This document shows positions 5,370 to 58,199 of a DNA stretch of 64,000 bases, in pieces. A program made the position numbers and the translations under genes. This DNA comes from an uncultured virus (IMG/VR IMGVR_UViG_3300034190_003093) (taxonomy: Duplodnaviria; Heunggongvirae; Uroviricota; Caudoviricetes). Where the stretch lies: positions 1-64,000 of the IMG/VR virus record IMGVR_UViG_3300034190_003093; one strand, written 5' to 3'. Numbering within the stretch: the stretch's first letter is position 1; every line of letters starts with the position of its first letter. The notes under the pieces are model-generated. The model was given only the letters and a program-made list of their open reading frames with translations. It was not told where the DNA came from and searched no databases.

Positions 5370-5441
5370 AATAAAACTCCTATATTGTTATTATATTATT
5401 TATCGTATACCTTTCAGTAACATCCATAAGACATAATTCGG

Positions 5442-5469
5442 TTGACAATATTTTGATATATGCTATATT
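5442..5469 (+). promoter_or_regulatory. Early sigma70-type promoter
   Basis: TTGACA-N16-TATATT with TG extension. Confidence 0.65.
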
Positions 5470-5501
5470 AGTGGTGTAGTTAATATAATCAGGAGGTAAT
5501 C

Positions 5502-5750
5502 ATGTCAACCGCTACATTCATGTTGTTGTTTAGTCTTTCTATTACAGCACCCGACGGAGCACAGCTCGACGAAGTCGTTAACGTATACAGTAGGAGCTTC
5601 TCAACTGAAGCAAAATGCAACCGTTTCCTTAAAAACTATGGAGCATTGATTCGAGGAAAAGGTCTGCGCACATTTCAAGGCATGCTCAAAGATGAGTATA
5701 CAGTTGAACTAAACAGCGTGTCATGCAGCCAGATCGATAAAAACGGTTGA
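5502..5750 (+). CDS. Hypothetical exported protein
   Basis: AGGAGG RBS, hydrophobic N-terminus, two Cys. Confidence 0.6.
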   Translation: MSTATFMLLFSLSITAPDGAQLDEVVNVYSRSFSTEAKCNRFLKNYGALIRGKGLRTFQGMLKDEYTVELNSVSCSQIDKNG

Positions 5751-5775
5751 CACTTGAATACAGTTGTGTTATATT
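5747..5775 (+). promoter_or_regulatory. Early sigma70-type promoter
   Basis: TTGACA-N17-TATATT. Confidence 0.65.
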
Positions 5776-5804
5776 GTATTGTAAGTTAAACGAAAGGATA
5801 TCCC

Positions 5805-5972
5805 ATGTGGGCAATTGAAGCAAGAAACTACGGTGAGAACAAAGACTACTTTTACATGTCAGGATTGACAGAAGAAGAGTCACGTGCTCGCCACGCTAAA
5901 CTTAGTAACAGTGGCGAGTGGGCTTTAGTGCGCAGTTGGGATAAGCGTCAAGAATTTGGAGGCAAATCATGA
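5805..5972 (+). CDS. Small hypothetical protein (55 aa, not in ORF track)
   Basis: AAGGA RBS; ATGA overlap with next gene. Confidence 0.6.
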   Translation: MWAIEARNYGENKDYFYMSGLTEEESRARHAKLSNSGEWALVRSWDKRQEFGGKS

Positions 5973-9200: not shown

Positions 9201-9340
9201 AAAATGTCCAATTCTGTTAGCTTTGTATTACTTATCAAATACTCGTTATAATGTACATATTTTCGGACCTAAATAGCTTGCTAATCAAAAAAAAGTTATA
9301 CAAGTATGGTTAGTTAGTATAAACAGAAAGGAGATAAACA

Positions 9341-9574
9341 TTGGATATCTTAAATAAAGTAAAAGGCTGGGCAAATGGCTTAACTGAAGCAGCGGTGAGC
9401 TTGCTTGCACTAGGCATTGTACTTGAAGTACTAGTAGGCGGCGCAAATGTACCGTTCTGGCCAGATATCAACGTTATCGGAAACGTTCAAAGTATCATAG
9501 CAGGATTTTCTGCGCAAGGACTAGTTGGTCTAGTTGCTGTGTGGGTACTTTACTCAATCTATACTAAGCGATAA
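9341..9574 (+). CDS. Small two-helix membrane protein
   Basis: AAGGAG RBS, TTG start, two hydrophobic segments. Confidence 0.65.
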   Translation: MDILNKVKGWANGLTEAAVSLLALGIVLEVLVGGANVPFWPDINVIGNVQSIIAGFSAQGLVGLVAVWVLYSIYTKR

Positions 9575-9585
9575 TACTATAAGAA

Positions 9586-9621
9586 AGTGACGGAGCTTTT
9601 GTTCAGATCAGCTCCGTCACT
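9586..9621. terminator. Hairpin between convergent genes, probable terminator
   Basis: 12-bp inverted repeat agtgacggagct/agctccgtcact. Confidence 0.7.
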
Positions 9622-9829
9622 ACCACAATCCTAATGCTCGGCCATTACCTGCTATAATAGCACAACAAGTAACAACATGTAACACAATCCAAAAGGTTCT
9701 AAATGCTAATGCACGCCTTACATCAGTTTGTGTAATAGGCAAAAACTCTGGTTTATCATCATCGGTTATGCCTATTGGCATTCCGACTGTTCTTGCCCAC
9801 ATTTTTAAAAAACGCCGTTGCCCGCTCAT
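9620..9829 (-). CDS. Small membrane protein
   Basis: 69 aa, C-terminal hydrophobic helix, coupled to upstream micro-ORF. Confidence 0.55.
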   Translation of the reverse strand: MSGQRRFLKMWARTVGMPIGITDDDKPEFLPITQTDVRRALAFRTFWIVLHVVTCCAIIAGNGRALGLW

Positions 9830-12864: not shown

Positions 12865-13035
12865 TGTTCGTATCCTCAAGTATGTGTATGTGTTAAAAAA
12901 TGTATATTGCAACCAACCCTATGCTGCGTTGCAACACATTTATTTATAAAGTATAATACAGAAATTTGCTAAAAACAACTGTTTATAGCGCATACTCGAT
13001 ATGCAATACATGCAATGCTTTTAGATCTTTTCAGG

Positions 13036-13063
13036 TTGACAAGTGTGCAGTTGATGTTATAAT
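13036..13063 (+). promoter_or_regulatory. Early sigma70-type promoter
   Basis: TTGACA-N16-TATAAT. Confidence 0.75.
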
Positions 13064-13092
13064 AGTATTATAAGTTAATTAGGAGAGCAACG

Positions 13093-13326
13093 ATGAAAGA
13101 AATGTTGATTGACAACAATACTACACTCAATTGTAGCATGAAAAAACAGTTGTTTAATGACTTAACATACGATTTAAAAAATTGGAAAGATCCAATTCGT
13201 GCAGTTATTCCGATTGTTGACTTTGCTGAATACAATGCTGCATGCCTTCACTTTACAGGAAAAGAACTAAAAATCATTGACTTTCAAGATCAACGAGTTG
13301 GAGTCGAATGTACCGATTATGAGTGA
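13093..13326 (+). CDS. Hypothetical protein
   Basis: AGGAG RBS after promoter. Confidence 0.6.
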   Translation: MKEMLIDNNTTLNCSMKKQLFNDLTYDLKNWKDPIRAVIPIVDFAEYNAACLHFTGKELKIIDFQDQRVGVECTDYE

Positions 13327-13573
13327 CGCAGAGAAAAGGCTTATCTTAATCACAGACTTTATTGAGCAACGTCTACGCAAAGAGCAAGAACTTGAGTATT
13401 ACCTCAAAGAGCTTGAAGAATTAAATCGAAAGATTGGATACTTGCGCACAGAAGTTGATCTCACTAATACAATTATCAAGATGATTAAGCACGAACAAGT
13501 GTACGATGTCCAGGATAACTTGATAGCAAACAATAAAAATTTGCTGATTAAAAACGACGGAGACGAAGAATGA
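13319..13573 (+). CDS. Coiled-coil hypothetical protein
   Basis: Overlapping start, E/K/R/L heptads. Confidence 0.6.
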   Translation: MSDAEKRLILITDFIEQRLRKEQELEYYLKELEELNRKIGYLRTEVDLTNTIIKMIKHEQVYDVQDNLIANNKNLLIKNDGDEE

Positions 13574-13731
13574 AACCAGTATTGATTGTTACAATGGTGC
13601 TATTATTAGGTGCTTGTTCCAACGTGCCAGGGTATCACGGTGTACAAAATGCACACGGTGCAAAAGAATTGTTTAACAACTGTCTGAGAGACATGTTGGA
13701 CACACGCAACAATAGAGGATCCGGATGTTAA
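13570..13731 (+). CDS. Small lipoprotein (53 aa, not in ORF track)
   Basis: MKPVLIVTMVLLLGAC lipobox; GGAG RBS; ATGA overlap. Confidence 0.6.
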   Translation: MKPVLIVTMVLLLGACSNVPGYHGVQNAHGAKELFNNCLRDMLDTRNNRGSGC

Positions 13732-13739
13732 ATATGCAT

Positions 13740-13982
13740 ATGACATCTCAAACAGTTGATACTATTTTAAAATGGATTGCAACATCGATATTATGTGTAG
13801 GTAGCTACATTGTGAGTGCACACCCAATGTCATATCCGCTTGGCCCACTGGTGCTGTTTTGTGGCGGATTTGTCTGGTTGATAGTTGCGGTTCGGTGGCA
13901 GGAACGTGCACTAATTATTACCAACGGTGTTATGTGCCTCATTACTGTTGTTGGCTTACTTAGATTTTACGAGTATATTTAA
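13740..13982 (+). CDS. Small three-helix membrane protein
   Basis: TAAATA-N5-ATG start; similar to 16787..17011 (KW.A...W.E.ALI..N). Confidence 0.6.
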   Translation: MTSQTVDTILKWIATSILCVGSYIVSAHPMSYPLGPLVLFCGGFVWLIVAVRWQERALIITNGVMCLITVVGLLRFYEYI

Positions 13983-14218
13983 TGACACCTTTAGAAATAA
14001 GTGAATACAAAATGCGATGGATGAGTAACAATCCTCATTCAGTTCGTCTACACAGCGATCTTGACACACAAGGTAAAACATGGTGTAGACGTAACTTAGA
14101 GCGGCACCAATGGAAGATGGATACGTGGACTGATGTGTATGAACATACATTCTTTTTTGAATTGAACGAACATGCTGATCTATTTGCACAGCAATGGCCG
14201 GAGTTTGTAAATCAATGA
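13982..14218 (+). CDS. Hypothetical protein
   Basis: Coupled ORF, WC...W...F pattern. Confidence 0.6.
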   Translation: MTPLEISEYKMRWMSNNPHSVRLHSDLDTQGKTWCRRNLERHQWKMDTWTDVYEHTFFFELNEHADLFAQQWPEFVNQ

Positions 14219-14367
14219 AAGAACATCAAGAACGTTACCACAACTACATAGGTCGCAAATTGCGAGAAGAGGATGCTAAACTTGCAGAGCAATCTGAAGA
14301 CCGTATTGCCATGTTAGAAAAGAAGGTTGCAAAAATAGAACAGTTTATTAAGTCAATCGAGAACTAA
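14215..14367 (+). CDS. Small coiled-coil protein (50 aa, not in ORF track)
   Basis: ATGA overlap, MKEHQERYHNY. Confidence 0.55.
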   Translation: MKEHQERYHNYIGRKLREEDAKLAEQSEDRIAMLEKKVAKIEQFIKSIEN

Positions 14368-14370
14368 TAT

Positions 14371-23156: not shown

Positions 23157-23186
23157 CCGAAATCATCAAAACGGACAATGTTGGGT

Positions 23187-23215
23187 TTGACAACTTGGTC
23201 GTTTGATGCTACACT
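23187..23215 (+). promoter_or_regulatory. sigma70-type promoter
   Basis: TTGACA-N17-TACACT. Confidence 0.6.
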
Positions 23216-23269
23216 GTTTGCATGTTGTTAGAAAACTAACAGCGAAATCACAATTGGAGACAAATTAAT

Positions 23270-23548
23270 ATGACAACCACAACTACCACAACAAAGCAAG
23301 ATAAAGTACTTAATGCACTTATGGCTGGTGAGCAACTCACAGGCAAGCAAATTTCAGCACGCTTCGGCGTAGGTAATGCTCGTGCAACTGTATCAGCATT
23401 GCGCATGAAAGGCTTTGCTATCTATGCTAACGAGTCAACAGACACTAAGGGTCGTGTGAAAATCAAGTATCGCTTGGGTCGCCCATCTCGTGCTGTTGTT
23501 GCTGCTGGTTACAAAGCACTTGCGGCTGCATCACGTGCCGCAGCCTAA
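23270..23548 (+). CDS. Small winged-helix DNA-binding protein
   Basis: LT.KQI..RFGV.N.RATVS.LR..G..IY; own promoter and terminator. Confidence 0.7.
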   Translation: MTTTTTTTKQDKVLNALMAGEQLTGKQISARFGVGNARATVSALRMKGFAIYANESTDTKGRVKIKYRLGRPSRAVVAAGYKALAAASRAAA

Positions 23549-23573
23549 ACTTTAACAGTTTAAATTTACAACT

Positions 23574-23603
23574 AAAAAAGCTGCCCTAGGGTGGCTTTTT
23601 TTT
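23574..23603 (+). terminator. Intrinsic terminator
   Basis: A-tract, gctgcc-ctag-ggtggc stem-loop, T8 tract. Confidence 0.8.
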
Positions 23604-23624
23604 ACGATTAATGCAAAATACAGG

Positions 23625-23653
23625 TTGACCTTTTTATTGTTTTAGGCTATACT
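23625..23653 (+). promoter_or_regulatory. Early promoter cassette
   Basis: TTGACC-N17-TATACT. Confidence 0.75.
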
Positions 23654-23677
23654 ATATGTAACAGCTAGGAGAAAAAC

Positions 23678-23860
23678 ATGCTTATCGTAAATGACATCCA
23701 AGACACAATTACAATGAAAAACAAACTGTCTGGGTTGCTTCGTCGCTCCAACACATTTGATATGTCCAAGTCAGACATCCAAGTTGAACTTGATATGATC
23801 ATCGAAGATCTTATTAAAAATGAAGCCCGCATCGAAAGCAACATGCAGGAGACAGTGTAA
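23678..23860 (+). CDS. Hypothetical protein
   Basis: AGGAG RBS. Confidence 0.6.
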   Translation: MLIVNDIQDTITMKNKLSGLLRRSNTFDMSKSDIQVELDMIIEDLIKNEARIESNMQETV

Positions 23861-24039
23861 TGCAAACATTTACTTTTGAAGCGTATGGTAAAACTTTTAA
23901 AGTACAAGGCAAGACTGCACTGTCTGTAATGGAAGATGCAAATCGTGAATTACTATGGGGAAATAAGCAATACAAACAGGGCGCCTGGAGTGATGGCCCA
24001 ACGAAATTCTGCTGGATTGAAGGAAACTTTTTTGATTAA
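23860..24039 (+). CDS. Hypothetical protein (59 aa, not in ORF track)
   Basis: AGGAG RBS, TAATG coupling. Confidence 0.55.
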   Translation: MQTFTFEAYGKTFKVQGKTALSVMEDANRELLWGNKQYKQGAWSDGPTKFCWIEGNFFD

Positions 24040-24054
24040 TTGATACGATTTAGG

Positions 24055-24083
24055 TTGACCTTTTTATCAAGATCGGCTATACT
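24055..24083 (+). promoter_or_regulatory. Early promoter cassette
   Basis: TTGACC-N17-TATACT. Confidence 0.75.
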
Positions 24084-24130
24084 GTATATACTAGAACGGC
24101 AATCCACTGCCTTATCATCGGAGAAATATA

Positions 24131-24328
24131 ATGCACGATACAACAGATAACACTATTGGTCTTGTAATGATCACAATCATAAGCATAGTACTGGGATACT
24201 ATGCTGTTCAAACAATACAACACGATACTATGTTTGGTTCAACTGGTTCGGCGGCACACACTGTAACACAACAAGTTAATGAGCTGACAAAAGCAAAAAT
24301 ATACATTGCTACGTTAGGACTAAATTAA
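24131..24328 (+). CDS. Single-pass membrane protein
   Basis: GGAG RBS, N-terminal TM helix. Confidence 0.55.
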   Translation: MHDTTDNTIGLVMITIISIVLGYYAVQTIQHDTMFGSTGSAAHTVTQQVNELTKAKIYIATLGLN

Positions 24329-26402: not shown

Positions 26403-26440
26403 CTTCGTACTAGGACAATCTGTGGCTAAATATCACTGTA

Positions 26441-26710
26441 ATGTTTAAAAGCTACGATAAACTCGAAGAGATATTTGGCAAAGATGACGCAGTTGCTGGA
26501 ATGGTACTGTCGTTGTGTGCAGCAATGTTTGACAACGGTGTGAAACTAGTACACATTGGTGGGCTCATGAGAATGCTGGGAGTACCCAATGATGTGGCTT
26601 GCGAACATGACGAAGAAGCAATAGAGTTACCAGATAACTTTTACGAACAATTAGAAGAAATGGAAACAGAGTTAGAAAGCTTTGTGCCTGCTTCAGCTAC
26701 CGTACATTAA
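26441..26710 (+). CDS. Hypothetical acidic protein
   Basis: TAAATA box 8 nt upstream. Confidence 0.55.
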   Translation: MFKSYDKLEEIFGKDDAVAGMVLSLCAAMFDNGVKLVHIGGLMRMLGVPNDVACEHDEEAIELPDNFYEQLEEMETELESFVPASATVH

Positions 26711-26726
26711 TTAGGAGATAAAATTT

Positions 26727-26903
26727 ATGTCAGCCCATGATACACTTGTTGAACAATTTGAAACATACTTGTTAGAACATGCTAAATTTGAAGAAAAGGG
26801 TGTAAAAGCCTCTGCAACACGAGCTCGTGCTGCACTACAAGCAATTGGTGGAGCAGTCAAAGAGCGCCGCAAAGAAATCATTGAAAAGAAAAATTCACTT
26901 TAA
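26727..26903 (+). CDS. Hc1-like (histone H1-like) small protein (58 aa, not in ORF track)
   Basis: AGGAG RBS; KF..KGVKASATRAR.AL...K.RRKE. Confidence 0.65.
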   Translation: MSAHDTLVEQFETYLLEHAKFEEKGVKASATRARAALQAIGGAVKERRKEIIEKKNSL

Positions 26904-26904
26904 T

Positions 26905-27084
26905 ATGCCAACTGTTGAACTTTCTGTTATCGCCGACCCCAACAACCCAGATGAGTTGTTACTGCAATTGCCTGATTCACTACTCGAATCACAAGATTGG
27001 AAGGTCGGCGATACACTACAATGGAACGAAACAGTCAACGGTGCCTGGACACTAACAAAAAATGATGAATCAAACAGGGATTGA
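26905..27084 (+). CDS. AbrB/MazE-like DNA-binding protein
   Basis: LLQLPDSLLES.DWKVGDTLQW. Confidence 0.65.
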   Translation: MPTVELSVIADPNNPDELLLQLPDSLLESQDWKVGDTLQWNETVNGAWTLTKNDESNRD

Positions 27085-27304
27085 CGGTAGACTTTCACTA
27101 ACCGGCGATCATGCAGACATCGAAATTAATGGCGTTAGCCTCAGCGACACACTCGCTGCTATCAACGAAAAACTAGCTATACTTGTGCCCAATCCAGCAT
27201 TGGAACAAGAAAGTGCGGAACTGGCTGCTATTCGGCGTGAGTACATAAAGCTGGAAAAGCAGTTAATCGAAAAAAAACTAGCCTGGGAATTACTAAACAA
27301 ATGA
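27062..27304 (+). CDS. Hypothetical protein
   Basis: ADI.ING.SL...L..I..KLAIL.PN..LE. Confidence 0.55.
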
Positions 27305-50286: not shown

Positions 50287-51000
50287 TTAGTACAAAGATA
50301 GTACAGTGTCAATAATTGGATGGCGCTGTATATCTGTTTTAGTCATATAACACACAGCTAGCCCTGGGCTAGGTTTTGCGTTTAACTTTGAACACAAGTC
50401 AATTAATCCGTTGTCTGATGTTTTGCGATCTGCTTGTTCAACATCACCGGTGATTACAATTTTACTGTTTTCTCCTATGCGTGTCATCAACATTTTTGTT
50501 TGACTAGGCGTTGCGTTTTGCATTTCATCTGCAACAATGTATGCATTTTTAAACGTTCGTCCTCTCATAAATGCTAGTGGCGAAATTTCAATAGTTTGGG
50601 ACTCGAGCATGCGTTCAATGTCTTTGGTCGTGTAGTATTCACGTAACACATCAAATAATGGGCGTGTCCACGGTTCCATTTTACTGTTTAGATCTCCTGG
50701 AAGGAACCCGTGTTTTTCATCATCAACACCTACTGCCGGGCGTGTTAGTATAATACGCTCACACTCTTTTGCTTTAAAAGCTTTGATTGCTGCTAACATA
50801 GCCAGATAAGTTTTACCTGTGCCAGCTGGGCCAGTTGCAACCACAATTGACTGTGATTCGTCTAGTAGATTTAAGATGAGTTTTTCTTGATTGAGTGACT
50901 TAGGTCTGAGCTCAATGTTGCGATTTTTAATCGCTTGATTAAAGTTTATAGTGTTGTCTTCCCGCGGCTGATATTTTGCTTTGCGTTTGGCTCTCGACAT
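50287..51000 (-). CDS. phoH: PhoH-family ATPase
   Basis: GPAGTGKT, GFLPGDL, MRGRTF, DEMQN, TGD..Q.D. Confidence 0.95.
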   Translation of the reverse strand: MSRAKRKAKYQPREDNTINFNQAIKNRNIELRPKSLNQEKLILNLLDESQSIVVATGPAGTGKTYLAMLAAIKAFKAKECERIILTRPAVGVDDEKHGFLPGDLNSKMEPWTRPLFDVLREYYTTKDIERMLESQTIEISPLAFMRGRTFKNAYIVADEMQNATPSQTKMLMTRIGENSKIVITGDVEQADRKTSDNGLIDLCSKLNAKPSPGLAVCYMTKTDIQRHPIIDTVLSLY

Positions 51001-52266: not shown

Positions 52267-52971
52267 ATGCTTTATAAAGGTATTTTTGCTGTCGGTGATA
52301 GCTTCACTCGTGGCGACGAATTAGCAGATTGCCCGGAACAACAAGTAAGTCCATACCAAAGTAGTTTTAGTCAAAGCACTTGGCCGGCATTAATTGCAAA
52401 GTCATTAAATATTGATTATAATGCCGAAGCCATTGGTGGCAAAGGAAACCAATGGATAAGTTTTACAACTAATGGAAACATCAAACAAGATAATATTTTT
52501 ATCATAAACTGGACTTGGTTTGAAAGATTTGACTATGTTGGCACCGAAACTGATATTTGGGAAACAACTCACCCACGGCACGAAAATAAACTAGATCATT
52601 ATTTTTATAAAAATATTGACAACGATATTTGGAATTTATTTAGAAATTTACAACAAATGCACAGTACCATCCAACTACTAAAGCAACATAATATTAAATT
52701 TATCATGACATGCTTAGATCCAGAATATACTACTAAAGTTCTTGATATACGCCCTCATCCATACCCTCGGCCACCGGGCTTAGAGGCTTGGGACCCAGCA
52801 GTTGACCGGTTGCACGGCCAAGTAGTTCCACATATATTAGATTTTGAAGGTCAGACGTTTCTCGAATGGAGCCATTCTAACAATTTCAAATGCGGCCCAA
52901 ATGGGCACCCATTAGAAGATGCACATGCAGCCGCAGCAGATTATATAATAAAAAACAAATTACATCTTTAA
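52267..52971 (+). CDS. SGNH/GDSL-like hydrolase
   Basis: GDSFT.G, INWTW..RFD, GHPLEDAH. Confidence 0.65.
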   Translation: MLYKGIFAVGDSFTRGDELADCPEQQVSPYQSSFSQSTWPALIAKSLNIDYNAEAIGGKGNQWISFTTNGNIKQDNIFIINWTWFERFDYVGTETDIWETTHPRHENKLDHYFYKNIDNDIWNLFRNLQQMHSTIQLLKQHNIKFIMTCLDPEYTTKVLDIRPHPYPRPPGLEAWDPAVDRLHGQVVPHILDFEGQTFLEWSHSNNFKCGPNGHPLEDAHAAAADYIIKNKLHL

Positions 52972-52984
52972 TAATCCAACACAC

Positions 52985-53352
52985 AAGGTTAGCGGGCCAG
53001 TTAGTAATTCCGCTGTGGAAAAGGCTACCGTATAGGAGCACACGTAACACGTTGATCAACACACCAGAGTGTGGAAGCCATCAAACAAATTGGGCTCACT
53101 GGTTGACGTAGATAGCATGTTGGCTGTCGAAAAACTGCACATTACACACAAAAACTCTTTGCACAGGAACGAAGCAAGAGGTAGCTGGAAACAGCGATGT
53201 CGATGTAGGTTGGGAAAGGTCAGAGCCCAGTGTGTAGCAGTATAATAAACACCTACTTCCAAGTTCTCGGCTGGATAAGACTCACATGAAGTTTATCTTT
53301 GAGATGATGGGGCCGTAACAGGTTCCGTCTGACTGAAATGATCTACATGAAA
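52985..53352 (+). ncRNA. Candidate large structured non-coding RNA (family unassigned)
   Basis: Gap without a credible ORF; many helices, GAAA tetraloop, G-U pairs favouring the plus strand, crossing long-range pairings. Confidence 0.55.
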
Positions 53353-53469
53353 TAAAACAATATTATTATCTTCTATTATTTTAAAACAAGAAGTTTGAGC
53401 GACAGCGATAACTTGTTTCGGTGCAAACGAAACATATAAATACCTATATAATAGAGGTACATAAAAAAA

Positions 53470-54339
53470 ATGAGTTTTGAACTACAGAAAGATCATCTAG
53501 CTAAATTAATACCTGGTAATAAAGATGTAGATGCATGGCATGAAGCTCTGGTTGCAGTAATGCCTAAGTATGGTATCAACACTGCCAGAAGAGCAGCACA
53601 TTTTATTAGCCAATGTGCGCACGAATCAAACAACTTCCGTAGTTTATCGGAGAATTTAAACTACAGTGAAAAAGCACTCAATGCAGTGTTTGGTCGTTAC
53701 TTTGGTGCAGCACCTAAGCGTAATGCAGCAGAATATGCTCGTAACCCAGAGAAGATTGCAAACTATGTGTATATGGACGAGTTCCGTAAGTACAAGATGG
53801 GCAACGTAAATGAAGGTGACGGTTGGTTGTTCCGCGGGCGTGGACTAAAGCAATTAACAGGACGTGAAAACTACACACGTTTTGGTAATTCTATTAATAT
53901 TAGTGCAGAAGAAGCAGCAATATATGTTGCAACTCCAAAAGGTGCCGTTGAAAGTGCTTGCTGGTTCTGGGATGCAAACAAACTAAACACTATTGCTGAC
54001 ACAGATGATGTTGTAAAGATGACCAAGAAAATCAACGGTGGTAACATTGGGCTTGCAGACAGACAACAGCGTTATGCAAAAGCAATGCAAGTATTTGGTA
54101 GCCCAGTATCGCTATCAGAAGATGCTGGCGATGATGATTTTGACGTAGATGACATCGGTGTATTACGCAAAGGTTGCAAAGGCCAAGGTGTTAAAATGAT
54201 GCAAGAAGCATTGGGCATTGGAGCTGATGGTGCATTTGGACCAGGTACAGAACGTGCACTTAAAGCATGGCAAACAGCAAACAGTCTAGTAGCAGATGGT
54301 ATTGCAGGACCTGCAACACTAGAGAAACTACTAGGATAG
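53470..54339 (+). CDS. GH19-family endolysin with C-terminal peptidoglycan-binding domain
   Basis: F..QCAHES, ENLNYS, RGRGLKQLTGR.NY, INGG; ADG.FGPGT and ADGIAGP. Confidence 0.9.
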   Translation: MSFELQKDHLAKLIPGNKDVDAWHEALVAVMPKYGINTARRAAHFISQCAHESNNFRSLSENLNYSEKALNAVFGRYFGAAPKRNAAEYARNPEKIANYVYMDEFRKYKMGNVNEGDGWLFRGRGLKQLTGRENYTRFGNSINISAEEAAIYVATPKGAVESACWFWDANKLNTIADTDDVVKMTKKINGGNIGLADRQQRYAKAMQVFGSPVSLSEDAGDDDFDVDDIGVLRKGCKGQGVKMMQEALGIGADGAFGPGTERALKAWQTANSLVADGIAGPATLEKLLG

Positions 54340-54341
54340 GC

Positions 54342-54761
54342 ATGTTTAGTGCTGTTCGCATAGGTTTGGTAATAAGTTTGATTGCAGGAATTGGTGTAGG
54401 CTATCTCTACATACAAAAACTACAAAACGATTTACAAACAGCACAAGAAAATGTTGCAAAAATGGAAGTAGCAATACAAATTAGCGAAGATAGTATTGCT
54501 ACTTTACAAGCCGAAGCTGTGCGCAACGCAGAGCTTAATGCAACACTACAAAAGAATTTACAATCAGCAGAACAGTACGGAGATGAACTTCGTGCAACTC
54601 TTAGAAAACACGACTTAACAGCATTGGCAGCAAGGAAACCTGGGCCAATTGAATTGAGGATGCAAAATGCAACTGATGAATTATGGAATGATTTCCGCAT
54701 TATTACTGACCCTGATGGGTTGCAGTTTGAGACCAGAACCGGAGATAGTAACAGTAACTAA
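54342..54761 (+). CDS. Probable inner-membrane spanin (Rz-like)
   Basis: N-terminal TM plus coiled coil, directly after endolysin. Confidence 0.7.
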   Translation: MFSAVRIGLVISLIAGIGVGYLYIQKLQNDLQTAQENVAKMEVAIQISEDSIATLQAEAVRNAELNATLQKNLQSAEQYGDELRATLRKHDLTALAARKPGPIELRMQNATDELWNDFRIITDPDGLQFETRTGDSNSN

Positions 54762-55074: not shown

Positions 55075-55890
55075 ATGTCGGATCTTTACAAAACATTAGG
55101 TGTAACTAAAAACACCAATGAAGCTGAGCTTAAAAAAGCTTATCGTAAACTTGCGATGGAACATCACCCAGACAAAGGAGGTGATGCTGATAAATTTGCA
55201 CAAATTAATAATGCTTACGAAACATTAAAAGATCCTCAAAAACGTGCAGCATATGATCGTTACGGCACTGTTGATCCACAACAACAAAGACCGCAAGGAT
55301 TCAGGCAGCAAAGTACGCCGTTTGATTTTGATAGTATTTTTGAAATATTTGGACAACGTATGGGCGGCTTTGGAGCCAGGCAACAAAACACGCAAAGACC
55401 AATGGATGCACGAATGAGTATAACCATTGATTTGCCAACCGCTGTAGCAGGTGGAAAAAAGATATTTGCTGTGCAAACACACACAGGACCGCATAGTATC
55501 GAAATTAGCATACCCAAAGGCGTAGTCGATAACGAACATGTACGGTATCCCAAGTTAGGGCCTAATGGCTTAGACTTGGTTATGACTTTTAGAGTTCTTG
55601 GACATAAAAAATGGCATCGTGACGGGCTTGACTTGCACATTGAACAGCCTGTTGATTTTTGGCAGCTGATATTAGGATGCACGTTGACTATTACAGATAT
55701 ACTAGGGCGCACATATGGGTTAACTGTTCCGCCTAAAACCAAACCAGGATGTGTTATGCGAATGCACAACAAAGGTATCGAAAGAGAAGGTCACAACACA
55801 GGTGATATCTTTGTGAAATTAAAAGCAACACTACCGGACAACATACCTGACGAAGTAATAAGAATAATAAAAAACAACCAAAATAAATAA
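55075..55890 (+). CDS. DnaJ/CbpA-type co-chaperone without zinc finger
   Basis: J domain with HPD, G/F region, C-terminal DnaJ domain. Confidence 0.9.
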   Translation: MSDLYKTLGVTKNTNEAELKKAYRKLAMEHHPDKGGDADKFAQINNAYETLKDPQKRAAYDRYGTVDPQQQRPQGFRQQSTPFDFDSIFEIFGQRMGGFGARQQNTQRPMDARMSITIDLPTAVAGGKKIFAVQTHTGPHSIEISIPKGVVDNEHVRYPKLGPNGLDLVMTFRVLGHKKWHRDGLDLHIEQPVDFWQLILGCTLTITDILGRTYGLTVPPKTKPGCVMRMHNKGIEREGHNTGDIFVKLKATLPDNIPDEVIRIIKNNQNK

Positions 55891-55913
55891 CAGTATAAAA
55901 CTAAAGGAATATT

Positions 55914-58199
55914 ATGCAATTAAATCCAGAAATTGAGTCAATTCTCATTGATGCAACTAAACTTGCACACAACAAAGATCATGCATATGTAACAATTGAA
56001 CACTTGTGCCTGTCACTATTGCGTCATCCTCCTTTTTGGAAATGTATTGATAAGTTTGGTGTGAGTCCTGAGGGACTTGATGAAGATCTGGAGTTTCATC
56101 TAGACAGTCTTGAGTCATTGAAACACCCAGTTGTGTCCAAGGGCAGCGAACCTAAAAAAACCAATGCATTAGAACGAGTGTTTAATCGTGCATCAACACA
56201 GGTAATGTTCGGCGGTCGGCGCACTATGACTACAATTGACTTGTGGCTTTCTATCATGGGAGAAAACAACAGCCATGCACATTACTTCATGCTCAAGCAC
56301 GGTGTACTTAAAAAAGACTTTGTAAATTTTTGGCAAGAACATTACCAAGGAAAAGGGGAAAGTGGCATGGCGCACGAACAAGCCAATACTATCCTTAAAG
56401 AACACTGTACTAACATTACTGAATTAGCGAACAATGACAAGCTTGAACCAGTAATTGGACGTGACACAGAATTAAACGATATAATCACAGTATTAGCCAA
56501 GAAATTTAAAAGTAATGTGTTGATGGTAGGCGATCCAGGTGTAGGCAAGACTGCAATTGCCGAAGGACTAGCCACTATGATCAAAGACAATAGAACACCT
56601 GAATTTCTTCAAGGATTTGAAGTATGGGGATTGGAAATTGGTAGTTTGCTTGCTGGTTCGAAGTATCGAGGAGACTTTGAAGAAAAGCTGAAAGATGTTA
56701 TTGCTGCACTTGAATCAAAGAAAAACTGTATTTTGTTTATCGACGAAGCACACACTATGAAAGGTGCTGGTAGCGGCAGCGGTAGCAGTCTCGACTTTGC
56801 TAATATGATCAAGCCAGCAATTACTAAAGGTAATATTAAAGTGATTGCAAGTACTACCTGGGAAGAATTCTACGAAAGCTTTGAGCAAGATCGTGCACTG
56901 ATGCGAAGATTCTATAGAGTCAGCATCGACGAGCCAGACACAAAAACAACAATTAAAATCTTACAAGGGTTGCAGTCAAGGTTTGAAGACTTTCACAACG
57001 TAGCAATACACCCAGACGCAATTATTAAAGCTGTTGATTTGGCTACTCGCTACATGAATGATAAGAAAAATCCTGACAAAAGCATTGACTTGATTGATGC
57101 TGCATGTGCAGTTGAACGTGTAAAAGACATATCAGGACTTGTAGTAACCGAATCATCAATCGAAACGCAGGTAGCAAGAGTTGCTAATATACCAGAAACT
57201 AAAATTGCTGGCGATATGAGTAATAAAATTCTCGAACTTAATTCGCATATTAAACAAAAACTATTTGGCCAAGACCATGTAGTTGATGAAGTATTAGACA
57301 GGCTTTATGTTAACTATGCCGGAATCGGTGCACTTAATCGTCCAATGGGAGCATATTTGTTTCTAGGCCCAACCGGCACAGGTAAAACTGAGTTTGCTAA
57401 ATTAATTAGTAACAACCTAGACATGGAATTGTTGCGTTACGATATGAGTGAATACCAAGACAAGCACACAGTTAGTAGTTTACTTGGTGCACCTCCTGGC
57501 TTCGTTGGGTATGATGACAGCAATCTTGGTGGCGGAAAGCTCATTAGTGATGTGAGTAAGAATCCATACAGTGTGTTGTTGTTTGATGAAATCGAAAAGG
57601 CACACCCAGATGTGTCAAACATCTTCTTGCAAATGATGGACGAAGGTAAAATTTCAGGCGCTAATGGTAAAACTATTGATATTAAAAACTGCATTATCAT
57701 TATGACTTCGAACTTGGGTGCACGTGATAACGAAAACAACAACATTGGGTTTGGGCAAGACTTAAACAAAACAGGCAGTGAAGATAAAGCAGTCAAGGAC
57801 TATTTCAAGCCAGAACTAAGAAATAGGTTGGATCTTATTGTTAAATTCAAGCCATTGGAAAAACTAGCAATCAAGAAAATTGTTACCAAGTTTGCCAACG
57901 AGTTGCGAGTTAGCCTTAATGATAAAAACATCAACCTCATACTATCTGAACAATTAACCAATCACTTGGTAGAAGTTGGTTACGATCCATTAATGGGTGC
58001 TCGTCCACTAGGGCGTAAAATAGATGAACTGATCAAAGTACCATTGAGTAAGAAAATTTTGTTTCAAAAACTAAAAAATTGTCATGTCACAGCTGATTTA
58101 CTTGACGGCAAGGTTGTTCTTACCAGCAAACCTAAAACTAATGTCAGTGCTGAAGTAAATGAGAACGGTGTAGTAGTTGTAAAGGATGACGATGCTTGA
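55914..58199 (+). CDS. clpA: ClpA-type AAA+ unfoldase
   Basis: Clp N domain, two Walker A motifs (GDPGVGKT, GPTGTGKT), IGF loop, no ClpB middle domain. Confidence 0.9.
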   Translation: MQLNPEIESILIDATKLAHNKDHAYVTIEHLCLSLLRHPPFWKCIDKFGVSPEGLDEDLEFHLDSLESLKHPVVSKGSEPKKTNALERVFNRASTQVMFGGRRTMTTIDLWLSIMGENNSHAHYFMLKHGVLKKDFVNFWQEHYQGKGESGMAHEQANTILKEHCTNITELANNDKLEPVIGRDTELNDIITVLAKKFKSNVLMVGDPGVGKTAIAEGLATMIKDNRTPEFLQGFEVWGLEIGSLLAGSKYRGDFEEKLKDVIAALESKKNCILFIDEAHTMKGAGSGSGSSLDFANMIKPAITKGNIKVIASTTWEEFYESFEQDRALMRRFYRVSIDEPDTKTTIKILQGLQSRFEDFHNVAIHPDAIIKAVDLATRYMNDKKNPDKSIDLIDAACAVERVKDISGLVVTESSIETQVARVANIPETKIAGDMSNKILELNSHIKQKLFGQDHVVDEVLDRLYVNYAGIGALNRPMGAYLFLGPTGTGKTEFAKLISNNLDMELLRYDMSEYQDKHTVSSLLGAPPGFVGYDDSNLGGGKLISDVSKNPYSVLLFDEIEKAHPDVSNIFLQMMDEGKISGANGKTIDIKNCIIIMTSNLGARDNENNNIGFGQDLNKTGSEDKAVKDYFKPELRNRLDLIVKFKPLEKLAIKKIVTKFANELRVSLNDKNINLILSEQLTNHLVEVGYDPLMGARPLGRKIDELIKVPLSKKILFQKLKNCHVTADLLDGKVVLTSKPKTNVSAEVNENGVVVVKDDDA

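Follow-up and report, generated by a model that had tools for sequence, protein, structure and literature searches.

The ColE1 RNA II preprimer and the transcripts of the T4 origins oriF and oriG form R-loops, and T4-type phages use R-loop origins. New RNAs that are large, highly conserved and carry several pseudoknots seldom turn up; earlier cases turned out to be ribozymes, nanostructures or the cores of ribonucleoproteins. Here we describe an RNA of this kind in positions 1 to 64,000 of IMG/VR record IMGVR_UViG_3300034190_003093, an uncultured virus of the Caudoviricetes; this 64,000-nt stretch is referred to throughout as the window. Positions 52973–53352 of its plus strand almost certainly encode one copy of a new family of 330–440-nt RNAs from uncultured marine phages. 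We take the product to be the folded plus-strand RNA, folded plus-strand DNA being the less likely alternative. Like the ColE1 and T4 origin transcripts, it would be a long folded transcript in which an upstream segment has the letters of a downstream site, with AT-rich DNA and hairpins just downstream, and its host belongs to a T4-related phage lineage. The sequence-only reading of this stretch had predicted a large, pseudoknotted, ribozyme-sized phage RNA of no known family, a prediction supported here by hundreds of homologues, 13 covarying helices and two pseudoknots. So far it represents a large RNA family without earlier description, whose members usually lie directly behind the gene of a small selfish nuclease.

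An RNA family of uncultured marine phages

The RNA lies in a 498-nt gap (52972–53469) between the stop of a GDSL-like open reading frame (ORF) at 52971 and the start of an endolysin ORF at 53470; the longest ORF in this gap has at most 73 amino acids (aa). About 270 homologous loci were collected from viral and metagenome contigs (L numbers below denote these loci and contigs). A pattern of 19 nt taken from the centre of the gap matched 36 viral stretches, 34 of them true homologues with 72–85% identity over positions 52975–53365; the flanks of these 34 blastn homologues are unrelated to those of the window and the homology ends sharply. A degenerate 24-nt pattern added at least 120 further viral stretches (80 fetched), and a looser gapped pattern gave at least 120 from metagenomes (80 fetched); in genome contigs the 24-nt pattern matched three stretches. 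With hundreds of loci, at least 120 among the matches listed for each of the viral and metagenome sets, the RNA is abundant in the ocean virome. Contigs from marine RNA libraries (four libraries or runs of one study) with letters of the type of L003, a close relative of the window, span the RNA together with the gene on either side, and in such contigs the core is covered by many further members of the family.

Cultured phages of the collection searched gave no match to the RNA by blastn, either with the gap or with the nuclease-plus-RNA unit of the relatives described below; the sole match of these queries was 106 nt inside the nuclease ORF, in two Synechococcus phages. E. coli genomes gave no match at E≤10. 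The core also occurs in three contigs of 73, 335 and 153 kb (L353, L354 and L355) filed under a Crocinitomicaceae metagenome-assembled genome and, twice, under one Neomarinimicrobiota metagenome-assembled genome. Most probably phage contigs have ended up in bacterial bins here, or else the contigs hint at the host; we do not count them as evidence for one. Many metagenomic contigs break off within the RNA (L267, L272, L281, L284, L292, L293, L317, L330, L333 and others), contigs L086, L098, L101, L103–L105 and L107 do likewise, and several contig ends fall 142–149 nt past the nuclease stop codon. Assembly seems to have broken at the conserved core that co-occurring phages have in common, and assemblies therefore probably under-count the family.

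No known RNA family accounts for the element. A covariance-model search with Rfam 15 (4227 models), the check that the sequence-only reading had proposed, gave no match at gathering scores in the entire window. At E≤10 the region 52800–53600 gave two chance matches, both on the minus strand, one outside the element and one at its edge, and seven diverse homologous loci gave none at E≤1. ARAGORN found no tRNA or tmRNA gene in the window. A single sequence folds no better than its shuffles (minimum free energy −98.5 kcal/mol versus −97.6±5.2; z −0.17 for the plus strand, +1.61 for the minus strand), and the evidence for an RNA is comparative.

Covariation defines the fold

Alignment A3 comprises 77 representatives, less than 96% identical, chosen from 93 distinct full-length copies. 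Mutual information on A3 revealed many Watson-Crick-compatible column pairs, and the model tested has 76 pairs arranged in hairpins H2, H3, H5, H6, H7, H9, H10 and H13, long helices H4 and H8, and pseudoknots PK1 and PK2 (Table 1). As controls, the 3' partners were slid by 1–3 columns and the alignment was shuffled 500 times. Across the 77 sequences 87.8% of cells pair in the model, compared with 35–40% when the partners are slid. Changes on both sides were found for 53 of the 76 pairs and in 656 cells, versus 211.5±12.9 cells in shuffles, and 0 of the 500 shuffles matched the observed values. Many conserved G-U pairs place the fold on the plus strand, on which all the neighbouring genes are also encoded. 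The G-U pairs to which the sequence-only reading had drawn attention, workable on the plus strand only, are real, and such pairs are common throughout the family.

All the complementary segments which that reading listed lie where it had placed them, and seven of its ten pairings are backed by covariation, both crossing sets among them: tagcggg/tccgctg, cacac/gtgtg, ctctttgc/gcaagag, gctg-GAAA-cagc, gatggggcc/ggttccgtc, ctgc+tacaca/tgtgta+gcag and gtaggt/acctac. The other three, tgggctc/gagccca, gtagat/atctac and catgt/acatg, do not covary (77.2% of cells pair versus 76.8% in shuffles), and two of these long-range pairings clash with strongly supported helices (H4, H7 or PK1). Covariation further supports four elements that had been overlooked, namely the 5' pseudoknot PK1 and helices H3, H4 and H7. 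The top mutual-information pairs of PK1 are 52976:53123 and 52979:53120.

Four parts of the RNA are almost invariant: a segment of about 34 nt (53196–53229), the GGAACGA motif of the H9 loop, the 3' strand of PK2 with its TTCC, and the 3' strand of H13. The core 53196–53229 was also invariant in 34 loci found by a pattern outside it. The TTCC that follows PK2 could pair with the GGAA of the H9 loop, both being invariant and beyond the reach of covariation. The H5 and H6 insert is swapped for a simple hairpin in many members of A3, and H10 carries insertions of up to ~70 nt in relatives, the distance from GGAACGA to the core ranging from 35 to 103 nt and not in steps of three. Within H8 the pair 53149:53230 is unsupported, and in H13 two pairs changed on both sides and four on one side only.

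PK2 is invariant in A3 because the search pattern fixed its letters. In 83 independent loci its strands read GTAGGT:ACCTAC (69), GTAGGT:ACCTAT (5), GCAGGT:ACCTGC (3), GCAGGT:ACCTGT (1), GGAGGA:ACCTCT (2) and GTAGGA:ACCTAC (1), and in two loci no 3' strand was found. These loci confirm PK2 by three kinds of compensatory change, and AGAGGA:ACCTCT is a further variant. RNAalifold instead paired GTAGGTTG with a 3' ATCTAC; this was rejected since in the eight loci whose 5' strand had changed at a paired position ACCTAC followed the change and ATCTAC did not. Both strands of another RNAalifold pairing, GGTCAG/CTGACT, are invariant, with no covariation to be read, and the variant L337 breaks one of its pairs.

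A decayed gene was also considered and rejected. Compared by tblastx with 83 loci, the gap matched only itself and L003 at E≤0.1, and reading in six frames gave no convincing frame. The RNA region is conserved at every codon position, and its conservation does not come from coding since the length of H10 does not vary in multiples of three and no protein similarity came out of tblastx. Together with covariation far past both controls and the independent confirmation of PK2, these results make it hardly credible that the gap holds no functional RNA, just spacer, a decayed gene or a short coding gene with chance complementarity, even though the folding energy does not exceed that of shuffles and ORFs of 58 and 68 aa overlap the region.

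Matched direct repeats

The only lineage-variable single-stranded segments of the RNA are two matched direct repeats, DR1 and DR2, which flank H13, carry the same letters and lie 54–69 nt apart across the family. Their columns covary in identity: 53284 and 53345 are the same in 75 of 76 sequences, 53288 and 53349 in 75 of 77, and 53290 and 53351 in 74 of 77. About 12 lineage-specific variants of 7–11 nt occur, each matched in both copies, among them the 11-mer of L163 and the 10-mer of L154, which are unlike the consensus. The longest word shared by the two repeats is at least 7 nt in 85/86, 71/71 and 43/46 distinct sequences of three sets. It averages 7.5 nt, versus 5.6 nt when DR1 and DR2 are compared across lineages, a few of the words being anchoring errors of the script.

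Repeats that change together yet stay identical are an unusual signature, one that points to DNA pairing or to an unknown common partner. By mutual information no column covaries with the repeats in complementary (Watson-Crick) fashion, and no exact reverse complement of them lies within ±1.5 kb. Two contig fragments of 11.7 and 8.6 kb each hold two forward and no reverse matches, and we found no third copy marking a cassette boundary. Pairing of one repeat with the other through a palindromic CATG is possible for some variants only and was discarded. The identity of DR1 and DR2 is kept in copies of the RNA that have no nuclease gene beside them (the window, L154 and L380/L384/L417); the matched repeats are therefore a property of the RNA module and not of a co-evolving nuclease.

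Action in cis is favoured because the template DNA is the only complement to the repeats that we found. By analogy with known R-loop transcripts, we propose, at a probability of roughly 0.3, that the RNA pairs again with the template DNA from which it was copied, forming an R-loop or preprimer. The fold would leave DR1 unpaired, one hairpin away from the identical DR2. Once polymerase has passed DR2, DR1 could displace the nascent RNA on the template, and the transcript would become fixed as an R-loop beside the twin hairpins and an AT-rich spacer. This hybrid could act as a primer when the locus replicates or recombines, and would also help the adjacent homing-nuclease gene to spread. An upstream segment that matches a downstream template site is a mark of R-loop transcripts, and here DR1 equals DR2 in nearly all members.

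Association with a SegE-type nuclease

In L092 and L117 the ORF directly upstream of the RNA encodes 149 aa and matches Pfam PF19835 (SegE_GIY-YIG; E 2.3e-35) over residues 3–123. This SegE-type nuclease has 135–149 aa, and the RNA follows its gene directly, on the same strand. Among viral loci with enough DNA the nuclease ORF is upstream in 103 of 106; a further eight of the 114 core loci are too short upstream, and the loci truly without it are L094 (the window's own contig), L089 (the L003 contig) and L154. Among the loci from metagenome and genome contigs it is upstream in 61 of 66 (17 more are too short to judge), the five remaining loci falling into three other contexts. A search from the nuclease side gave at least 600 relatives in viral contigs. 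Among the best 80 of these, 51 have at least 450 nt downstream, and the RNA is present in all 51, in 46 by the strict core pattern and in five as variant cores recognized by eye. The conserved 5' end of the RNA takes in the nuclease stop codon, beside PK1, and in more than 90% of loci the RNA starts within the last nuclease codons.

By single-linkage clustering, the upstream region is common to 89 of 102 loci and the downstream gene to 63 of 93. No empty site was seen, as all 22 loci that were reached through the usual downstream gene and have enough upstream DNA carry the cassette. Behind the RNA the relatives show a hairpin, an AT-rich spacer, twin hairpins (present in most loci) and a TATAAATA box, which we take to be the T4 late-promoter consensus. 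The first of these hairpins, directly behind DR2, has 6–10 bp whose letters vary and whose pairing is kept, often with UUCG-type loops.

A bare catalytic domain, with residues 3–123 of 149 leaving no space for a DNA-binding domain, might employ the RNA as a subunit, and the RNA of a minimal GIY-YIG nuclease could give folding, targeting or regulation as a ribonucleoprotein. The adjacency seen from both sides and the stop codon within the RNA next to PK1 favour this. A 299,910-bp record with the same DNA as the window (hereafter the 300-kb record) also retains one SegE-like gene, with which the RNA of this genome would work in trans over 181 kb. We nevertheless regard such a subunit as unlikely, because intact copies without the nuclease occur in at least four contexts (window/L003, L154/L393, L380/L384/L417 and L400), and the genome's SegE-like gene has no RNA adjacent to it. 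Moreover, no end segment varies freely as a guide would, the RNA core is invariant while the nucleases span 52–100% identity, and no RNA-dependent GIY-YIG nuclease was found in the literature searched.

The RNA always lies behind a same-strand ORF and overlaps the stop codon in nuclease loci, as a cis-acting 3' untranslated element of the upstream messenger RNA would, and the hairpin behind it in relatives fits that role too. Such an element would serve stability, translation termination or read-through and be a leftover in the window. This is very improbable. At 380 nt, with two pseudoknots and an invariant core, the RNA far exceeds known 3'-end stabilizers, and it stays constant while the upstream genes vary (nuclease, GDSL-like and three others). 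The window copy is still under structural constraint, and the downstream gene has its own TATAAATA box.

Two further elements were noticed around the cassette. A short motif containing AGGCA lies 10–40 nt before the RNA 5' end in nearly all relatives (L133, L138, L148, L154, L158 and the nuclease loci; L380, L384 and L417), is present three times in tandem in L380-type loci and is missing from the window; it could serve as a promoter or processing signal. Most syntenic loci also have a conserved basic ORF of ~70 aa before the nuclease gene (L092:624–836 and L117:2192–2401, minus strand), to which the 300-kb record has a weak match only (E 0.02). It could encode a separate nucleic-acid-binding partner.

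A nuclease-less copy in a jumbo phage

In the window a module of ~470 bp (~52975–53443), consisting of the RNA, the spacer, the twin hairpins and the TATAAATA box, has been imported into a jumbo phage without the nuclease. Homology to the module ends at ~52975 and ~53443, the latter being reached in L092, L121, L090 and L114. The gap stretch is present in just one of 79 other endolysin loci of viral contigs (L003, 97.6% identity), and no more than 35 nt separate the upstream gene from the endolysin start in 65 of 76 other loci. In L002 the two genes before the GDSL-like gene are kept at 40–42% identity and the GDSL-like gene and the gap are absent, so the gap is part of an insertion. The GDSL-like ORF takes the place occupied by the nuclease gene in relatives and is absent from L002-type relatives. 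The TATAAATA box probably came in with the module, since the 64-kb window has just three copies, versus 5.0 expected by chance. A free-standing SegE-type homing cassette was rejected for the window, as the unit holds no intact GIY-YIG ORF.

The 137.5-kb record has no SegE-like gene. In the 300-kb record the sole such gene (257355–257756; 135 aa, 59% identical) is 181 kb from the RNA, which is present as a single copy at ~76.3 kb, and no RNA lies beside it. This SegE-like gene (L242:509–1902, record G001) comes directly after a gp46-like gene and overlaps, with its stop, the beginning of an SGNH-like ORF of 329 aa. The RNA likewise follows a GDSL/SGNH-like gene; the two proteins are barely similar (E 1.1).

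The window and L003 are 97–99% identical in the gap and 75–93% in its flanks. Eight differences fall within 52973–53352, three in unpaired positions and five in helices, and all five keep the pair. A change of G to A at 53111 is compensated in H7 by C to T at 53128; T to C at 53113 turns a U-G into a C-G pair; and the changes at 52991 and 53058 turn A-U into G-U pairs. Since these differences are compensatory or preserve wobble pairing, the fold of the window copy is still maintained under constraint. Between the same two genomes, 54100–54300 and 54500–54700 are also 97–99% identical with flanks at ~80%, and an indel of ~210 nt lies near 54340. This patchwork suggests that the two phages have exchanged DNA in mosaic fashion, which weakens an argument for selection based on identity alone.

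As far as sequence comparison can tell, the RNA is functional in its own right, as its nuclease-less copy in the window shows. An autonomous RNA acting in trans, carried as cargo of the homing cassette and kept for its benefit to the phage even without the nuclease, is a possibility that we hold tentatively. It might, for example, be a ribozyme that cuts at the repeats and frees a hairpin piece of ~60 nt, or it might bind a factor of the host or phage or act as a decoy for one. In size, in its two pseudoknots and in its invariant single-stranded core it resembles typical ribozymes and RNAs that bind proteins, and it is intact in nuclease-less contexts and single-copy in the 300-kb record. There is also a precedent for a homing gene beside RNA genes in SegB, which is reported to lie within the T4 tRNA cluster (PMC2330249, PMC13096335). 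Set against a trans-acting RNA are the lack of a ribozyme or other RNA-family match in Rfam 15, the lack of an internal guide complementary to the repeats, and the joint travel of spacer, twin hairpins and TATAAATA box, which it leaves unexplained.

Features and neighbouring genes

The gap had been described as the largest stretch without a credible gene in the window. The gap itself is real; its rank is not, for five other stretches without an ORF of at least 100 aa are longer, at 574–1458 nt (12913–14370, 23157–24324, 26403–27300, 5370–5968 and 9201–9774), and Rfam at gathering scores found nothing in these five. Likewise, the RNA does lie upstream of the lysis genes here, as had been noted, although this position is incidental given that 63 of 93 homologous loci have another downstream gene. 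A promoter scan gave one sigma-70-like site (52920–52949), which is not kept in L003, and a terminator consensus scan gave no terminator-like site. Elsewhere in the window, the phage encodes a full DnaJ (J domain and C-terminal domain) beside a ClpB-type double AAA+ chaperone at 55075–58199 and a PhoH gene on the minus strand at 50287–51000.

Table 1. Positions in the window of the RNA, its structural elements, the rest of the module and the two neighbouring genes
Feature	Position	Strand	Evidence or remark
GDSL-like ORF, upstream neighbour, 234 aa	52267–52971	+	Pfam PF00657, E 4.9e-4, below cut-off
Structured RNA, orphan copy of the family	52973–53352; homologous unit ~52975 to ~53365	+	blastn, alignment A3, covariation
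PK1, 5' strand	52976–52981, pairs with 53118–53123 (H7 loop)	+	99.2% of cells paired; 4/6 pairs changed on both sides
Hairpin H2	52991–52995/53010–53014	+	5/6 tested pairs changed on both sides; 52996:53009 unsupported
Hairpin H3	53024–53026 and 53028–53029 with 53035–53039	+	5/5 pairs changed on both sides; 71–88% of cells paired
Long helix H4	53050–53058/53100–53108	+	7/9 pairs changed on both sides
Hairpin H5, inside H4	53060–53064/53069–53073	+	4/5 pairs changed on both sides
H6, inside H4	53077–53079/53093–53095	+	2/3 pairs changed on both sides
Hairpin H7, loop forms PK1	53111–53115/53124–53128	+	5/5 pairs changed on both sides
Long-range helix H8, closes core	53135–53138/53237–53240, 53143–53148/53231–53236	+	10/11 pairs changed on both sides
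Hairpin H9	53155–53159/53176–53180	+	Pairs 230:255, 231:254 and 232:253 compensatory
Invariant loop motif GGAACGA of H9	53166–53172	+	In 114/114 loci
Variable hairpin H10, GNRA loop here	53184–53195	+	4/4 pairs changed on both sides
Nearly invariant core, holds PK2 5' strand (53205–53210)	53196–53229	+	A3
PK2 3' strand (53251–53256), then TTCC	53251–53260	+	PK2 variant counts
Direct repeat DR1	53284–53290	+	Identity covariation with DR2
Hairpin H13, 9 bp with three G-U pairs, between repeats	53306–53329	+	98.6% of cells paired
Direct repeat DR2, 3' end of conserved RNA	53345–53351	+	Identity covariation with DR1
AT-rich spacer	53353–53390	+	Fold −0.8 kcal/mol, z +0.44
Twin hairpins, conserved behind the RNA in relatives	53391–53395/53410–53414, 53415–53420/53428–53433	+	Fold −12.6 kcal/mol, z −2.43
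TATAAATA box, end of imported module	53435–53442	+	28 nt before endolysin start; same place in relatives
Endolysin gene, downstream neighbour	53470–54339	+	GH19-like and PG_binding_1; 416 relatives in viral contigs

Discussion

Several points weigh against an R-loop or preprimer role for the RNA. We saw no direct sign of an R-loop or origin, and GC skew is steady at the locus, which is weak evidence in such phages. An RNA-DNA contact of 7–11 nt is short. The invariant 34-nt core and the two pseudoknots are left unexplained, and the tight link to a nuclease without a DNA-binding domain fits a ribonucleoprotein equally well. In the window itself the terminator-like hairpin behind DR2 is degenerate. 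The contigs from RNA libraries cover the flanks too and can neither prove transcription nor show transcript ends.

In the literature searched, including the part that we covered of a viral RNA catalogue with over 10,000 candidates (PMC10690425), no description of this RNA family was found. The catalogue's supplement lists the genes downstream of each candidate, and the family may be among those left unnamed. It is the only large RNA that we found tied to a GIY-YIG homing nuclease, and that nuclease is a bare catalytic domain. It is quite unlikely that the RNA is a partner of this domain whose repeats match its DNA site, or else a new large ribozyme that cuts at the repeats. Were it such a partner, this would be the first RNA-dependent GIY-YIG homing nuclease, whether scaffolded or programmed.

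Among known systems, the ColE1 RNA II and T4 origin transcripts, to which the R-loop role was likened above, have no sequence or Rfam relation to this RNA. No antisense regulator was seen here, the two pseudoknots and invariant core have no counterpart in RNA II, and an origin role at this locus is putative. The HEARO and omega-RNAs of IscB and TnpB are similar in that a large RNA lies behind a mobile nuclease gene, overlaps its 3' end and spreads with it. This adjacency is found in the relatives and not in the window, where the GDSL-like gene is upstream. They differ in that the partner here is a GIY-YIG protein (PF19835 SegE_GIY-YIG) and not a RuvC/HNH one, that no Rfam match exists, that no freely variable guide is found at an end, and that the RNA also occurs without the nuclease.

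The layout of the core recalls a group I intron such as T4 td with I-TevI, in that a long-range helix is crossed by a second one with two hairpins between them, as P3 and P7 are with P4–P6, and in the association with a GIY-YIG homing gene in T4-like phages. Here H8 and PK2 cross in this way, and 18 nt separate the P7-like strand (PK2 5') from the P3-like strand (H8 3'). The position of P8 is taken by a linker of ~10 nt with no hairpin. Unlike an intron, this RNA interrupts no gene; it sits between the stop codon at 52969–52971 and the start at 53470, in relatives it follows the nuclease stop codon, and it has no group I match in Rfam at E≤10. RNase P RNA was rejected as an identity, there being no Rfam match and the 5' end pairing with an internal hairpin loop (PK1) instead of the 3' end.

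GOLLD, ROOL, OLE and raiA also have no Rfam match to this RNA, which is smaller (~380 nt) and tied to a homing-nuclease cassette. The likeness to them is one of kind, for they too are large, richly structured RNAs, some of them phage-borne, that came to light by comparative analysis of uncultured sequence.

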